A stretch of DNA of 6,046 nucleotides from a virus: IMG/VR virus record IMGVR_UViG_3300020029_000059, positions 1 to 6,046 of that record; one strand, written 5' to 3'. The notes under the pieces were generated by a model. It did no database searches and was not told where the DNA came from. It worked only from the letters and a program-made list of their open reading frames with translations. Positions 1,616 to 6,046 of this stretch are shown here, piece by piece. The stretch's first letter is position 1; each line of letters starts with the position of its first letter. Made by a program: the position numbers and the translations under genes.

Positions 1616-1924
1616 TTATTTACGTTTATCAATAACTTGGTGACGACTACGGTGACCAAATGAAATATGAATAAATGTAGGATACAATATCAGCTGGTCA
1701 AACACATGAATATTATCCGAATATCTATGAATATGTTCAAGCAACTGATTATAAGAAGTAGAACCATAAGGCTTCATATCAATAGCTTCTCCGGTCAAAT
1801 GTTGAGAAGTAGGAACACCACCACAAGCCTTATTTTGTTCAGGAGTACGACGAGCACTAGTTATTGTAAAATGAACATTAGAAACCAACAAGTACTCAAG
1901 AAAATGTATAAGAGCATAATTCAT
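1616..1924 (-). CDS. Zn-dependent peptidoglycan peptidase, Peptidase M15 (M15A/M15_3, YcbK/VanY-like fold), 102 aa; candidate endolysin or entry hydrolase
   Basis: The sequence TSARRTPEQNKACGGVPTSQHLTGEAIDM matches the family signature S-x-R-(T/S)-x-x-x-N-x-x-x-GG-x-x-x-S-x-H-x6-D. A C-terminal His lies in FIHISFGH. No signal peptide or TM segment is apparent. The start overlaps the stop of the preceding small ORF as ATGA. Confidence 0.85.
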   Translation of the reverse strand: MNYALIHFLEYLLVSNVHFTITSARRTPEQNKACGGVPTSQHLTGEAIDMKPYGSTSYNQLLEHIHRYSDNIHVFDQLILYPTFIHISFGHRSRHQVIDKRK

Positions 1925-2004
1925 AATCCAATAGCGTTAAGGATGTAACCTAAAGCGGCAGAAACAGCTCCAATGATAATTTTCCAAATATTATTACTTT
2001 TCAT
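1921..2004 (-). CDS. 27-aa single-pass membrane peptide (MKSNNIWKIIIGAVSAALGYILNAIGL); candidate holin-like or membrane partner of the M15 peptidase
   Basis: This is an internal ATG (2004-2002) of the track ORF 1921..2145. Only these 27 codons lie outside the overlap with the 64-aa gene (apart from 11 nt). 14 of the 27 codons end in T, matching the usage of the real genes. A polar, basic N-terminus is followed by a 19-residue hydrophobic stretch. The stop TGA overlaps the peptidase ATG (ATGA at 1924-1921). Confidence 0.5.
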   Translation of the reverse strand: MKSNNIWKIIIGAVSAALGYILNAIGL

Positions 2005-2188
2005 TGCTTTGAATCTTAAGTTCAACAAAATCATTTTCCTCTTTAATCGAATCCACAATAACAATAAGACCCAATGAAGAAACTCGCTCAGAATAGCTTC
2101 CAAGACCATCGAGAGAATTGACAATATAAGGCGAAACAACATCACGACCAGTAGTTTTTTCCTTAACTGAGATAATAAATTTCTGCAT
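1994..2188 (-). CDS. Hypothetical 64-aa protein, first gene downstream of the long non-coding region
   Basis: It is an ATG-to-TAA ORF with balanced, non-hydrophobic composition (MQKFIISVKEKTTGRDVVSPYIVNSLDGLG...). It sits in the coding orientation shared by all other genes. I recognise no motif. Confidence 0.6.
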   Translation of the reverse strand: MQKFIISVKEKTTGRDVVSPYIVNSLDGLGSYSERVSSLGLIVIVDSIKEENDFVELKIQSNEK

Positions 2189-2308: not shown

Positions 2309-2377
2309 AGTTGTGCGTTTATGGACAAGGAAAGGAGAATTCGAGAGGATAACTCGGAATTTGCTTCGCACACAACT
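2309..2377 (-). repeat. Nested stems H8 (9 bp, long-range) enclosing H9 (8 bp with one bulge)
   Basis: H8 pairs 2309-2317 with 2369-2377: on the minus strand AGTTGTGTG pairs with CGCACAACT, with one G-T wobble. H9 pairs 2338-2345 with 2353-2361 (AATTC-GAG / CTC-g-GAATT, loop AGGATAA). Confidence 0.55.
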
Positions 2378-2388
2378 AGGGGCTTCGC
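2363..2388 (-). repeat. Two copies of GCGAAGC (minus strand) 19 nt apart, each able to form the GC/GAA/GC mini-hairpin
   Basis: Plus-strand GCTTCGC occurs at 2363-2369 and at 2382-2388. The minus strand reads AAGCGAAGCCCCTAGTTGTGTGCGAAGCAAA. Confidence 0.7.
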
Positions 2389-2473: not shown

Positions 2474-2512
2474 CGAAGCGGAACGCTTCTCTATGGAAGT
2501 CGCTCCGCTCCG
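2474..2512 (-). repeat. Long hairpin H2 (16 bp, one bulge, 6-nt loop)
   Basis: The minus strand reads CGGAGCGGAGCG-A-CTTC [CATAGA] GAAG-CGTTCCGCTTCG. It forms 14 Watson-Crick pairs plus 2 G-T/U wobbles. An alternative local fold is GAAGCG-TTC-CGCTTC (6 bp). Confidence 0.65.
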
Positions 2513-2589: not shown

Positions 2590-3732
2590 TCACCGACCAT
2601 TATAAATAGTAGTATTACGTGGGCCATAATCATTACGATAGATATTGGCACCAGGACGAAACGAACCAATAAAATTACCGGCACCAGCAGCAATAGAACC
2701 AATACCACGAGCAACAGATTCCCAATAATGAGTACGACTTTGTTTACGGACCAATTCAGCACCATACTCAGCAGCTTTCTGATTTGCCATAGAAGTTTTA
2801 TACTCCACATGCTTACGAAGCTTAACATTTTTATAATCATAAGTGCTATCACGATACTGCAACTCGTTAGAAGCATTAGCGGCCTTAATCAAAGAATCAG
2901 CAGTTTCAGAAGCTACACGATTATCAATCTTTTTTCCGGAAGTTTCAGCGGAGATAAGAATAGCACGCTGAATTTCAGTCTGAATTTGCTTCTCCGTAAG
3001 AGCGCCTTGAGTCTGAAGATTAACTAGTGTTTGCGCCTTAATGAACAAATCAGCTTGTTGATTCTGGTCCATATATTTATTCATAATACGCTGGGCTTCA
3101 GAATTAAGCAAAATTTGCGTTTCCTGTGCGGCCGAAATACGTTCGGCAAACTGGGCATTCCTCAGATTTTGAGCTTCAGTAGACTGGTCCAGAGCAGCAG
3201 AAATACGACCTGTTTCATTATTCCAGTAACCAGAAGAACCAATAGCCAGATTTTTCCAATTAGTAAGGCCTCTATAATAATCAGACAAAAGAGGAGTTAC
3301 GGTATCAGTCTGACGCGCACGAGAACCTGATTCGTTAGCTGCGGCTTCTGAGGCCTTGGCCTGAGCAAGAGAAGCAAGAGATTCAAAAACACCAGAAAAA
3401 TTAGGTTTATAAGCTTGCATACTAGGAACAGGAGCAGCAGTAGCAGCAGCTCCGCCAGAGGCAGGAGACCTAGAACCAGCCATAGCGGCAGAACCCTGAA
3501 CAAATGGGTTCAAACCGCGAGAAATCATAGCATTGGGAGAATTATAAGCATTATTCATACCCCACATCTGTTGCTGCCAATCACGCTGAATCTGAGCTTG
3601 CTCAGCATTAAATGCATTTTGCTCACGCATCATACGGAGATTAACCTTATTCTGATGATTCTGATTAGCCATGCCGACAATATTATCGGTAAGGTTTCCT
3701 ACAGAAGAAGCAATAGCGTCAAACAAGCCCAT
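2590..3732 (-). CDS. VP2: Minor capsid / DNA pilot protein (VP2, phiX174 H-like), 380 aa
   Basis: The N-terminus MGLFDAI...MMREQNAFNAEQAQIQRDWQQQMWGMNNAYNSPNAMISRGLNPF matches the conserved N-terminal block of microvirus VP2/pilot proteins (N-F-N-A-E-x-A-Q-x-x-R-D-W-Q...GLNP). A Gly/Ala/Ser-rich linker follows, then a long Q/A/E-rich stretch that is presumably helical, as expected for a tube-forming pilot protein. The start overlaps the upstream stop (TAATG). Confidence 0.88.
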   Translation of the reverse strand: MGLFDAIASSVGNLTDNIVGMANQNHQNKVNLRMMREQNAFNAEQAQIQRDWQQQMWGMNNAYNSPNAMISRGLNPFVQGSAAMAGSRSPASGGAAATAAPVPSMQAYKPNFSGVFESLASLAQAKASEAAANESGSRARQTDTVTPLLSDYYRGLTNWKNLAIGSSGYWNNETGRISAALDQSTEAQNLRNAQFAERISAAQETQILLNSEAQRIMNKYMDQNQQADLFIKAQTLVNLQTQGALTEKQIQTEIQRAILISAETSGKKIDNRVASETADSLIKAANASNELQYRDSTYDYKNVKLRKHVEYKTSMANQKAAEYGAELVRKQSRTHYWESVARGIGSIAAGAGNFIGSFRPGANIYRNDYGPRNTTIYNGR

Positions 3733-4172
3733 TACTCAGCAGAGGCAGATGCGGAATCCGGAGACGGCGCTGCCTTATTCTCTGCCAACATAGACTCGGC
3801 ATAAGCCGATAACTCAGATTTCTCATTAGCCAACTGCCATAATACAGCCTGTCGCTCAGACATTGTCTGACAGTGCCGAGAAATGACACAATCAAACCGT
3901 TGCTCGTCAGTCATACCATCCATGACAGTAGACTGAGTAGGATGCATCTGAGCAATAATGTTCTGGACATTCATATCACCAAGCAAACGACGATATTTCT
4001 CCTGATTCAATAGAATCTGCGTCATATCGACTTGAATCAAATCGCCATCAATAGTTTCATCGTACATAACTGAATCATACACAGACTGTTGATAACACGG
4101 GTGGCCCTCAATCAATTCGGGAACAACCTCATTTTTAATATAACCGGAATTTTTATAAGCAAAATTTCTCAT
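3732..4172 (-). CDS. Hypothetical 146-aa protein between VP1 and VP2; size and position fit an internal scaffolding (VP3-like) protein, but the function is unverified
   Basis: It is a clean ORF in the shared orientation, 12 nt after the VP1 stop. Its stop overlaps the VP2 start by 1 nt. It is acidic and ends in a low-complexity tail (AAPSPDSASASAE). I recognise no diagnostic motif. Confidence 0.7.
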   Translation of the reverse strand: MRNFAYKNSGYIKNEVVPELIEGHPCYQQSVYDSVMYDETIDGDLIQVDMTQILLNQEKYRRLLGDMNVQNIIAQMHPTQSTVMDGMTDEQRFDCVISRHCQTMSERQAVLWQLANEKSELSAYAESMLAENKAAPSPDSASASAE

Positions 4173-4184
4173 AACAGCACAAAA

Positions 4185-5840
4185 TTAATAAGGTAAACCG
4201 TTTCTATCCAAGTTCTGCACAGCATATACTTGAAAGTTAACATTACACAATAACTGGTCAAATGCGACAGAACAGTTAGCAGCATCAATCTGAGGGACAA
4301 AAATAGAATTAAGCTGTTGGGGGCGAACCTTCATCGACTGATATGACCAAGCACCGGAAGAGGTCAATACTTGCCAGCCGTCAAGGGGAGCAGCCCAAGA
4401 TTGATAAGCAGCACCAGCACGGAATCCGGCGTGGACAGTATCAATATTAGACTTCCACTGCCAATAACGGAGATTATAGCCAAGAGAACCGGAAACATTA
4501 CGACCAGGATTATTCTGAAGATTCAGAGCGGGAACAGCTTGCATACCAAGCTGGTCAAATGCAGGTTGTGGAAAATCAGATATAGCAGTCACAGTCAACT
4601 GAGGAGCCTGACCTGTCAAATTCCAGTCCAGCAGAGGTACAGCGTGATAAACACACATAATCACTTGATGCTCAGCGCCACAATCATAAGTAATAACATG
4701 ACCAGAATTGCTAGATACACCTTTACCGGCAATAGAAGCTTGAGAGGAATCGGTATCAAGGTTAGTATTGACTACCTCGTTAATATTAATAACACTAGAC
4801 CAGCCTCCAATATAATGGGCATGATTTCCCATATATTCAGGAGCCTTAATACCGAATTGGGCGGCCATCTGGTCTGAATAGTCTTTGCTAGAGAATTGAA
4901 CTACTTCTTTCCAACGTTGAAGGTATTCAGTTGCTCGAATTGAAAGAGCAGAGAGATCAGAATTAGCAGATGAAGGTACAACGTTGTTAGAACCAGTCGG
5001 ATCGCTAACCGTAGCCGATAAAGAAGGTAAAACAGCTACGCTACCATACTGAGAAGAAGGAAGCATACCCATAAAATAATCCTTAGGATAGTTCGCATAG
5101 CGGAGCTGAATCATATCCGTAACTAAAGAAATCTGACCAGTACCAGACCAATAGTCAACATTATAGGCATAAGCCTTATGTTTTTCCCACTGAGAATTAC
5201 TGAAGAAGTCATAATAAATCTTCTGATAAGCAAGGAACGGAAGAGCATTAACAATCTGTGAATTCTGGTAAACCAGAGGATTGTCAGAATCACCAAGACT
5301 ATCAACACCTAGATATTTCTGAGTAATAGCAGCCTTAGCTACATTGGAAGAGGCAATCAAAGAACCATAACCAAGCAAATCAAGCAACTTGCAAGAACCA
5401 TAGACAATAGGAAGTCCTGCATCATCACGAGTATTAGTCTGGTCACCGGCATTAGCCGTCTGTAAAAACTGATTAAAAATACTCAGAGAAATATTAGGCA
5501 CAGAAGTAAGTGCAGTCGTATTCGTAGTAGAACTAGACGCACTAGTCATATAATCGGTCATCTGAGTAAACGCCTGTGGTAGCGCACGAGAAATAAGGCG
5601 TAACGGCACAGCGTAAAAATCATAATATTCCTTGATACGAGTATAAGCAGCCGTATTAACCGGAACAGTACGGGTAAACCAGTCCGAAGAAATACGATAC
5701 TTAGTACCGGGAATAGCAATCTGCCAAAAGCAGGGAAGAATCTCACCAACTTTAGCAGTAAATAGTTTTTTCGAACTTAAGTCGAAGGAAGACCGATGGG
5801 TAGGAATCTTAGCTCGGTCTAAAGGATTAAAATCACTCAT
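4185..5840 (-). CDS. VP1: Major capsid protein (VP1, phiX174 F-like jelly-roll), 551 aa
   Basis: The N-terminal block HRSSFDLSSKKLFTAKVGEILPCFW...TRIKEYYDFYAVPLRLI resembles the conserved start of Microviridae VP1, particularly the gut/Bacteroidota-associated Alpavirinae-like type. It is the largest structural ORF and ends ...NLDRNGLPY. Confidence 0.92.
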   Translation of the reverse strand: MSDFNPLDRAKIPTHRSSFDLSSKKLFTAKVGEILPCFWQIAIPGTKYRISSDWFTRTVPVNTAAYTRIKEYYDFYAVPLRLISRALPQAFTQMTDYMTSASSSTTNTTALTSVPNISLSIFNQFLQTANAGDQTNTRDDAGLPIVYGSCKLLDLLGYGSLIASSNVAKAAITQKYLGVDSLGDSDNPLVYQNSQIVNALPFLAYQKIYYDFFSNSQWEKHKAYAYNVDYWSGTGQISLVTDMIQLRYANYPKDYFMGMLPSSQYGSVAVLPSLSATVSDPTGSNNVVPSSANSDLSALSIRATEYLQRWKEVVQFSSKDYSDQMAAQFGIKAPEYMGNHAHYIGGWSSVININEVVNTNLDTDSSQASIAGKGVSSNSGHVITYDCGAEHQVIMCVYHAVPLLDWNLTGQAPQLTVTAISDFPQPAFDQLGMQAVPALNLQNNPGRNVSGSLGYNLRYWQWKSNIDTVHAGFRAGAAYQSWAAPLDGWQVLTSSGAWSYQSMKVRPQQLNSIFVPQIDAANCSVAFDQLLCNVNFQVYAVQNLDRNGLPY

Positions 5841-5852
5841 AATTAATTAATA

Positions 5853-6046
5853 TTTAAATTAAACCATACGGTTGAGAATACCATTAGCATCATTAAGTTG
5901 CTTGTGCTTAATCATATCACGACAGAATGTTGCACTACGATACCGGAGTTGCTCAAGAAGCTGAAGCGTTTCACTTGATACGGCCTGCAAGACATCAGTC
6001 TCTTGCCCGTTCTGAGACAACGCAAACATACAATCTGATATTTCCG
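5853..6046 (-). CDS. VP4: C-terminal end of the same Rep/VP4 gene (5926-6046 duplicates 1-121; the unique tail is 5925-5853)
   Basis: The frame is continuous with the 1..1613 ORF: ...LEQLRYRSATFCRDMIKHKQLNDANGYSQPYGLI, then stop TAA at 5855-5853. A 12-nt spacer separates it from the VP1 ATG at 5840. Confidence 0.9.
5926..6046. repeat. Right copy of the 121-nt exact direct terminal repeat
   Basis: Identical to 1-121. The offset of 5,925 nt is divisible by 3, and the Rep reading frame continues across the junction. Confidence 0.95.

Follow-up and report, generated by a model that had tools for sequence, protein, structure and literature searches.

The window analysed here comprises the whole 6,046 nucleotides of the virus record IMGVR_UViG_3300020029_000059. 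We treat it as circular because its terminal 121 nt (positions 1-121 and 5926-6046) are identical, which makes it a complete circular genome of 5,925 nt. Every gene recognisable from the open reading frame (ORF) map and the family matches lies on the minus strand, and since Microviridae package the mRNA-sense strand we take the minus strand to be the packaged, viral strand. The sole large non-coding gap, which also has the highest G+C content of the genome, is a 401-nt intergenic region between the gene for the pilot protein VP2 and the operon of the replication initiator Rep (Table 1), and it folds better than its shuffles with both DNA and RNA parameters (z = -4.2 with each). In this gap sit two copies of the heptamer GCGAAGC, a sequence of the DNA mini-hairpin class, both on the minus strand at 2388-2382 and 2369-2363 (GCTTCGC on the plus strand). 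Below we present comparative evidence that the two heptamers belong to a conserved structured module, which more than 150 genomes of gut microviruses carry in the corresponding non-coding region, and weigh its possible role as an origin signal in single-stranded DNA (ssDNA).

A preliminary description of this DNA had reported GCGAAGC twice within 26 nt of the minus strand, and the window indeed holds these two copies and no other; that both lie on the packaged strand likewise holds, as a deduction from the orientation of the genes. The accompanying statement that chance is an improbable cause stands in part. About 0.61 copies are expected per window, two or more were obtained in 25 of 200 shuffles, and the window contains 13 heptamers, whatever their sequence, that recur within 26 nt (6.6 +/- 3.3 expected); hence the copy number alone is not significant. 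This heptamer was paired within 26 nt on one strand in only 2 of 4,000 Markov simulations, a statistic that counts only because GCGAAGC had been named beforehand. As the count is unremarkable, the case rests on the comparison with relatives, and it is conservation and not counting that, on the sequences compared, excludes chance.

Thirty-four deposited phage genomes, from dog faeces, human vaginal secretion and lemur faeces or saliva, carry the intergenic region at 71-88% identity, and three exact-pattern scans of IMG/VR added about 130 further contigs of ~6 kb. In every one of the 121 full-length genomes the gene order is the same and VP2 and the 64-aa ORF flank the element, which lies on the coding strand; across these genomes amino acid identity falls to 44.5% for VP2 and 54.9% for Rep. 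Mini-hairpin site 1 was scored in contigs retrieved by anchors that exclude it, 96 with an upstream and 109 with a downstream anchor. Its stem and GAA loop are intact in 95 of the 96, the exception being the compensatory variant ACGAAGT, and the exact 15-mer GCGAAGCCCCTAGTT, i.e. site 1 with the spacer that follows it, occurs in 92 of the 96 and in 101 of the 109; the other eight downstream-anchored contigs have GCGGAGC (five) or a change outside the hairpin (three). At site 2 the outer pair among 130 sequences is G-C in 68, C-G in 44 and A-T in 10, with the inner C-G kept, and this is the strongest covariation of the element (mutual information 1.27); its loop is GAA, GGA, GTA, GAAA, GTAA, GAAC, GAAT or GGAT, and once GAC. 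A third motif of this kind, site 0, reads GAGCG(G/A)AGCGAC, the variable base being G in 113 of the 130 rows of the alignment and A in 12 (the other five being misaligned or divergent contigs), the free loop base alone varying, and a fourth hairpin with a C-G-closed G-N-A loop covaries between A-T (95) and G-C (29).

The natural variants include GCGAAGC, GCGAAAGC, CCGAAGG, CCGAAAGG, GCGGAGC, CCGTAGG and GCGAACGC. Tested against the mini-hairpin class of Hirao, d(GCGNAGC) / d(GCGNNAGC), the sites agree with it in sequence: the general form N-C-G-N(N)-A-G-N', with C-G closure, a G...A loop and a complementary outer pair, is present at 2382-2388, 2363-2369, 2502-2508 and 2457-2463, and across more than 150 genomes it is, rare exceptions aside, only the free loop base(s) and the outer pair that change. 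As DNA, this class is marked by extraordinary heat stability, anomalous mobility in gels and resistance to nucleases. DNA mini-hairpins of the type GCGNAGC melt at 70-76 C, d(GCGAAGC) and d(GCGAAAGC) at 76.5 C, the weaker ones with GAAB loops at 67-70 C and DNA CCGAAAGG at 65 C, as compared to 39 C for r(GCGAAAGC), the RNA counterpart of a form melting at 76.5 C as DNA (PMC13037366). The variants seen in nature are largely sequences measured to form DNA mini-hairpins. On this comparative evidence both heptamers are genuine and conserved as DNA mini-hairpins; at least three such hairpins are under selection, and the fourth C-G-closed G-N-A loop joins them. Further, what varies is either the free loop base(s) or the outer pair, the latter by compensatory exchange, and selection thus acts on the rule d(N-CG-N(N)-AG-N') itself. 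They are not the tandem repeat as which they had been labelled; instead they are two distinct structural positions of a larger element. The motif also has the strand and region bias that had been proposed as a check: the viral strands of 114 related genomes carry 211 copies of GCGAAGC, of which 163 are at sites 1 and 2, and the opposite strands 22 copies, as against ~26 predicted there from composition.

The alignment of relatives places sites 1 and 2 at fixed positions in a covarying module of ~100 nt, the 3' domain. In order, this domain comprises an AT-rich leader, mini-hairpin 1, a spacer, and a long-range helix that encloses mini-hairpin 2, a further hairpin and a 22-nt unpaired strand, and it ends in TCACAC. 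We defined the helices of the whole element by hand and counted them on the 130-sequence alignment, which gave 54 pairs in 11 helices: 96.3% of the cells are paired and 35 of the 54 pairs change on both sides, as against 23-49% paired in slid controls, and no shuffle reached these pairing values. The long-range helix is 99.9% paired and takes compensatory forms such as AGTTCAA/TTGAACT and AGTTGTA/TACAACT, and the hairpin that follows mini-hairpin 2 has 98.7% of its cells paired, with 6 of its 8 pairs changing on both sides. An all-against-all mutual-information scan was noisy at low thresholds and singled out the true helices at high values, and RNAalifold, run on the first MAFFT alignment, recovered part of the fold. 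Four of the genome's seven most conserved 25-mers among 40 relatives fall in the non-coding intergenic region or module; the second most conserved of all, CTTGTCCATAAACGCACAACTCACA, belongs to the unpaired pyrimidine-rich strand.

A covariance model of the 3' domain, R1, was built on the close family only (alignment A3, 133 distinct sequences). It nevertheless finds a full-length 3' domain in 23 of 25 far genomes whose Rep is merely 26-43% identical (E from 2e-15 to 0.06), in each case on the Rep-sense strand and within the gap that precedes the Rep block. Alignment A4, the deep set, has 97.9% of its cells paired (slid controls 22-45%); of its 20 pairs, 18 vary on both sides, and all eight pairs of the enclosed hairpin covary. 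The long-range helix is rewritten in these genomes, to GACTTTCG/CGAAAGTC in the Bacteroides fragilis phage phiHBP1 and to ATTTCTA/TAGAAAT in Microvirus mar56. Site 1 takes the forms ACGAAGT, ACGTAGT, GCGAAGC, GCGAAAGC or GCGGAGC, and site 2 the forms GCGAAGC, GCGAAAGC, CCGAAGG, CCGTAGG, CCG(A/C/T)AAGG or CCGATAGG; the unpaired motifs CT(T/C/G)G(T/A/C)(C/T) and (T)(C/G)ACA(C) are also kept. All close relatives and, with few exceptions, the far ones as well carry the motif at corresponding positions, which was the second check proposed in the preliminary description. A census of the general motif N-CG-N(N)-AG-N' in 17 far genomes compared the 450 nt ending at the module with the remaining ~100 kb. 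The 450-nt stretches hold 80 motifs on the viral strand (~10 per kb) and 15 on the opposite one, and the remainder 86 (~0.9 per kb) and 160, respectively, an approximately ten-fold enrichment on the viral strand of the module region. In mar56 the 593-nt intergenic region (3401-3993) has eight motifs on the viral strand and none on the opposite strand; some of them lie in duplicated blocks (GCGCAGC, GCGTAGC and CCGCAGG, each twice). The mar56 Rep, used as a query against viral contigs, recovered no relatives. In phiHBP1, described as the first cultured Bacteroidota microvirus (PMC13064476), the order is terminator-like hairpin, mini-hairpin cluster, 3' domain, A-run, ATTG-N20-TATGTTTG and Rep.

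Table 1. Genes and structural features of the window, listed in the direction of the minus strand
Feature	Position	Strand	Remarks
Major capsid protein VP1	4185-5840	minus	PF02305, phrog_514
146-aa protein	3732-4172	minus	
Pilot protein VP2	2590-3732	minus	
Intergenic region	2189-2589	minus	401 nt, between VP2 stop and orf64 start
5' domain	~2407-2567	minus	Hairpin, invariant block, site 0, terminator-like hairpin, three more hairpins
5' domain core	2522-2567	minus	Hairpin ATCGC/GCGAT (2549-2567) and invariant block GATATACACCCGCCGCCCGCGTAGGGCCTG (2522-2551)
Mini-hairpin site 0	2502-2508	minus	GCGGAGC, third mini-hairpin motif, in 5' domain
Terminator-like hairpin	2465-2489	minus	GAAGCG-TTC-CGCTTC (2475-2489), then GGTATTTTAG; terminator scan
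Fourth C-G-closed G-N-A loop	2455-2465	minus	Hairpin GCAC-GGA-GTGC (ACGGAGT at 2457-2463)
Two covarying hairpins	2407-2449	minus	GGCAGGT...ACCTGCC (2428-2449) and TATACA-CCCC-TGTATA (2407-2422)
3' domain	2303-2400	minus	Structured module with both heptamers; covariance model R1, 111.9 bits here
Mini-hairpin site 1	2382-2388	minus	GCGAAGC; G-C and C-G pairs closing GAA loop
Invariant spacer	2374-2381	minus	CCCTAGTT; holds CCCCTAG with CTA; last bases start the long-range helix
Long-range helix, 5' arm	2371-2377	minus	AGTTGTG, pairs with 2309-2315
Mini-hairpin site 2	2362-2370	minus	T-GCGAAGC-A, heptamer 2363-2369
Hairpin of 3' domain	2338-2361	minus	AATT(C)CGAG-TTATCCT-CTCGAATT (arms AATTCGAG/CTCGAATT), conserved TTATC loop, 8 bp
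Unpaired pyrimidine-rich strand	2316-2337	minus	Ends in near-invariant CTTGTCCATAAACG (2316-2329)
Long-range helix, 3' arm, and tail	2304-2315	minus	CACAACT (2309-2315), then unpaired invariant TCACAC
A9 tract and promoter candidate	2239-2288	minus	A9 (2280-2288); CTTG (2266-2269)-N19-TATATTTG (2239-2246); upstream of orf64
orf64	1994-2188	minus	64-aa ORF, ATG at 2188; first gene of orf64-peptidase-Rep block
M15 peptidase	1616-1924	minus	
Replication initiator Rep	from 1613, crossing window start/circular junction	minus	559-aa HUH initiator; HUH motif, PF23343 match

The 5' domain is less widely distributed. Its core shows compensatory changes at all pairs, and its invariant block contains the most conserved 25-mer of the genome; neither the far relatives inspected nor a few of the close ones have this core. 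Some close relatives swap much of the 5' domain yet keep the 3' domain. Of six contigs that at first appeared devoid of the 5' domain, one, L013 in our set, has it together with an insertion; a fixed-length extraction had misaligned this contig. The terminator-like hairpin covaries between A-T and G-C (46/72) while its loop varies freely, and the sub-part at 2475-2489 conforms to the definition of an intrinsic terminator, a G+C-rich hairpin with a T-run after it; where relatives differ in sequence at this place, a hairpin and T-run still precede the 3' domain. On the other side of the module follow the A9 tract and CTTG-N19-TATATTTG, both TTTG blocks of which are conserved in relatives. The Bacteroides promoter consensus is TTTG / TAnnTTTG, and CTTG-N19-TATATTTG, which fits it, is a candidate for a promoter of this type. 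In every lineage examined the module sits between the terminator-like hairpin and the promoter candidate.

Several observations concern the 5' domain and its borders in their own right. The segment CCCGCCGCCCGCGTAGGGCC (2524-2543, minus) can form two interleaved 3-bp helices, each with compensatory changes C-G/G-C/U-A, possibly as an H-type pseudoknot or as two exclusive hairpins. An alternative 12-bp hairpin at 2474-2512 (minus) is 95.5% paired, mostly through G-C to G-U changes; its 5' arm overlaps site 0 and it competes with the terminator-like hairpin and with GCGGAGC. The hairpin at 2407-2422 is deleted in several Dulem viruses. TATACACC(C) forms a direct repeat ~125 nt apart (2407-2422 and 2540-2551, minus) with an inverted copy TGTATA, Dulem virus 257 has the similar TTATACACC, and these repeats may be iteron-like binding sites. 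About 20 relatives (e.g. L002, L011, L028 and L072) contain a palindromic insertion of 30-50 nt, CCTAGATCTATTAGTAATGGATCTAGG, in columns ~333-410 of alignment A2, and L072 has a triplicated 23-mer; both lie precisely where the 5' and 3' domains meet, seemingly a hot spot for insertions. Some IMG/VR contigs, namely L025 (7,121 nt), L014, L028, L045 and L052, show the element twice by virtue of a long terminal redundancy; these are assembly concatemers and not true duplications. A XerCD/dif-like site (GTGCGCA, TGTTAATT) was rejected by inspection, as ~60 nt of structured sequence separate its halves.

Downstream of the region, the 64-aa ORF is kept in 121 of 121 genomes at 61.7-100% identity, and family searches gave no match for it; together with a 74-aa ORF it forms a pair of overlapping small ORFs within 1921-2188 (minus), upstream of the M15 peptidase gene. 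A coding role for the intergenic region itself, whether of a 57-aa plus-strand ORF (2404-2577) or of the coding sequences (CDSs) annotated in some records, was rejected on account of indels that are not multiples of three and of the compensatory changes. For the same reasons the CDSs for a 'hypothetical protein' deposited over the element (L006 606-932, L004 882-1034, L153 2326-2736 and L154 3581-3784, in the records PP511392, PP511648, phiHBP1 CNECMEOK_00004 and Dulem virus 257) are doubtful as genes. A scan of the whole window for tRNA and tmRNA genes found nothing. Neither a 30-mer anchor nor a degenerate pattern of the 3' domain, each used to scan a set of 185,579 representative genomes of bacteria and archaea, recovered a copy of the module. 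In view of there being no integrated copy we drew the host from the promoter type and from phiHBP1, and it probably belongs to the Bacteroidales.

What, then, might the module do? The closest working models are single-strand initiation signals, and for this reason we propose that it is an ssDNA origin signal, probably one for priming of the complementary strand by analogy to the complementary-strand origin (oric) of phage G4, a reading to which we assign a probability of about one half. We infer its action as DNA, its part in priming and the kind of enzyme involved; the proposed scheme is as follows. When the single strand enters the cell and becomes coated with single-stranded DNA-binding protein (SSB), the mini-hairpins and the helices they cap would stay folded. 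The folded module would keep SSB off and expose its invariant unpaired bases to a host enzyme, either primase or RNA polymerase acting as a primase, which would make the primer of the complementary strand; the resulting double-stranded form would allow transcription from the adjacent promoter of the Rep operon. The CTA within the spacer might, by inference only, be a start site for primase. Tandem mini-hairpins bind SSB poorly, and the hairpin promoters of phage N4 carry GGA or GAA loops (PMC13037366).

Known systems offer both likenesses and differences. GCGAAGC had been linked with the origin regions of phiX174 and G4, and this is correct for the priming regions of the two phages: G4 has its sole GCGAAAGC (3977) inside the annotated primer site (3970-3997), and phiX174 its sole GCGAAGC (2358) in the F-G intergenic region, home of the complementary-strand priming and primosome assembly site, and not at the nick origin in gene A. 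As in the oric of the Bullavirinae G4, St-1 and alpha3, the element here is intergenic and non-coding, lies on the packaged strand (as given by gene orientation), has several hairpins and places a mini-hairpin at the putative priming position, the priming hairpin having GCGAAAGC in G4 and GCGTTAGC in St-1/alpha3 (PMC13037366). An alternative between a long hairpin and a mini-hairpin has been proposed for hairpin I of G4 (PMC13037366), and it resembles the one between 2474-2512 and 2502-2508 here. Unlike G4 oric, the module arranges two mini-hairpins at set positions about a three-way junction, preceded by additional ones, is flanked by VP2 and the Rep operon instead of F and G, and probably works in a host of another phylum, the Bacteroidota. 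The PriA n' site of phiX174 is likewise a hairpin region of the viral-strand intergenic DNA that starts the complementary strand (the primosome assembly site; Shlomai and Kornberg 1980, as cited in PMC9865509), but it has one motif where there is a cluster here. In RSF1010 ssiA and ssiB an ssDNA hairpin capped by CCGAAGG, which is a common variant of site 2, stands next to an unpaired recognition strand (PMC13037366); ssiA, however, is read by the plasmid-encoded primase RepB', whereas the phage studied here encodes no primase. The hairpins of the reekeekee- and roodoodooviruses, also Microviridae, are intergenic, lie next to or upstream of Rep, show compensatory substitutions and have been tentatively linked to negative-strand initiation (PMC9865509); they differ in being single and simple, reportedly with neither a mini-hairpin rule nor a multi-helix module, and belong to unrelated clades. 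The intergenic region of the Ff phages (M13/fd) has, although from a different virus family, the same succession of gene stop, terminator, ssDNA hairpins, A/T-rich tract and Rep-gene promoter. RNA polymerase there recognises the minus origin as a folded promoter.

Several points weigh against this priming role, or against parts of it. No CTG start triplet of the E. coli type follows site 1, the sequence there being CCCCTAGTTG with CTA. R1 has no significant match in G4 or in phiX174 (best match in the latter 8.7 bits, E = 1.4), i.e. there is no homology in sequence or structure to G4 oric or to the phiX174 priming site. The adjoining Rep promoter and the unpaired CTTG would fit a nick site for Rep equally well. 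As the viral strand and the mRNA share their sense, pairing cannot separate DNA from RNA. The 3' domain alone folds no better than shuffles under nearest-neighbour models (z ~ -1.1), which do not predict mini-hairpins. The T-run of the terminator-like hairpin is short, four T's, and terminator and promoter alike are consensus matches. Finally, the mini-hairpin rule has rare exceptions: site 2 loops of GAC, GAAT and TCTT and a site 1 of GTGAAGC (once) in the farthest genomes, in addition to GAAC and GGAT.

The chief competitor, which we consider possible though doubtful, is that the module, or its unpaired CTTGTC...TCACAC part, is the viral-strand (plus) origin, at which the HUH Rep would nick the unpaired CTTGTC/ATAAACG strand, the helices and mini-hairpins serving to present this strand single-stranded in the supercoiled replicative form and at termination; it might even be both origins. 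This alternative is retained because the Ff plus origin is made up of the hairpins closest to the Rep gene, and in the Ff phages, the circular Rep-encoding single-stranded (CRESS) DNA viruses and many rolling-circle plasmids the plus origin lies upstream of the Rep promoter, just as the module lies immediately upstream of the Rep-operon promoter here. The Rep of this phage has an HUH motif and matches PF23343, the module is universal with a dispensable 5' domain, and the two unpaired motifs are conserved across Reps of 26-43% identity. Yet while 13 of 26 bases match the phiX174 origin CTTGATATTAATAACACTATAGACCAC when aligned by eye on CTTG, the 17-mer core of the conserved 30-nt phiX174 origin CAACTTGATATTAATAACACTATAGACCAC has no match within three mismatches in the intergenic region, and the third base of CTTG varies. 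A strand-specific G-N-A loop would, moreover, be of no use to the complementary strand, which must also extrude from the duplex. We know of no precedent for mini-hairpins at Rep nick sites. At priming sites, by contrast, there are several (PMC13037366). A combination of both roles, to which we give still less credence, would make the module the dual origin of a large clade of Bacteroidales microviruses: on one compact ssDNA fold with a SSB-resistant scaffold of mini-hairpins, the host would prime beside mini-hairpin 1 and Rep would nick and rejoin at CTTGTC. As for single-strand origins of other kinds, the CS-6 motif TAGCGW of the ssoA type does not occur within 2189-2589.

That the element acts as RNA, be it a structured 3' untranslated region, a terminator, an element of RNA stability, a leader or a small RNA, with control over the late or Rep transcription units, seems to us unlikely. 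It has the same sense as the mRNAs, the RNA fold of the whole intergenic region is as good as noted above, and the terminator-like hairpin, the possible pseudoknot and the G.U-rich alternative hairpin of the 5' domain would all suit an RNA, as would the GAAA, GCAA or GUAA loops of several far relatives, which are classic GNRA tetraloops. Against this, an Rfam scan of both strands of the whole window gave no family at E <= 1, and G.T (G.U) pairs make up only ~1.2% of the paired cells in both alignments (by hand tally, the invariant T.G at the end of the long-range helix being excluded in the 130-sequence set), a low proportion for a structured RNA. Also against an RNA role, the module follows the terminator-like hairpin and precedes the promoter candidate in every lineage examined. 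Mini-stems of 2-3 bp with mostly G-N-A or G-N-N-A loops would be marginal as RNA, as the 39 C melting point of r(GCGAAAGC) illustrates, and GAA, GGA and GTA triloops interchange with G-N-N-A tetraloops as they do in DNA stability tables (PMC13037366). For these reasons the evidence favours, although it does not prove, DNA over RNA. The preference of the preliminary description for a cis function at the DNA level is borne out to this extent, the motif being neither equally frequent on the two strands nor absent from close relatives; the function proper is our interpretation, and an RNA role keeps the small share given above. Less probable again is some other role of the packaged strand, such as packaging or condensation, protection from nucleases or host defence, or a hairpin promoter of the N4 type. 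The clustering of motifs is specific to the viral strand, mini-hairpins are resistant to nucleases and the N4 virion RNA polymerase reads hairpin promoters with GGA or GAA loops (PMC13037366), but the phage encodes no polymerase, a circular strand has no ends to protect, and invariant motifs left unpaired are what one would expect of sequence-specific recognition, not of protection in bulk. Packaging of microviruses is, to our knowledge, coupled to Rep-driven synthesis, and we know of no pac (packaging) site. Last, the non-significant copy number and the abundance of nearby heptamer repeats would agree with a chance repeat, or one conserved by shared ancestry alone, but at both sites there are compensatory changes with only the free loop base free to vary, and the motifs persist where all flanking helices have been rewritten; the comparative data already contradict this explanation, and its probability is close to nil.

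Homologous neither to G4 oric nor to the phiX174 site, and not an ssoA either, the module has no description in the literature searched, the phiHBP1 paper included. Microviruses outside the phiX174/G4 group are among the most abundant phages in mammalian guts, and for them the module represents a defined, testable candidate origin. Its presence in phiHBP1, the only Bacteroidota microvirus known in culture, makes genetics and biochemistry possible. R1 can be used to annotate the element, and flags several of the overlying 'hypothetical protein' CDSs as doubtful. Hitherto the d(N-CG-N(N)-AG-N') motif was known from isolated occurrences only, in G4, phiX174, RSF1010 and N4; natural compensatory variation now shows that the motif itself is selected, and if the dual-origin reading were true, this would be the first evolutionary proof of functional G-N-A mini-hairpins in nature.

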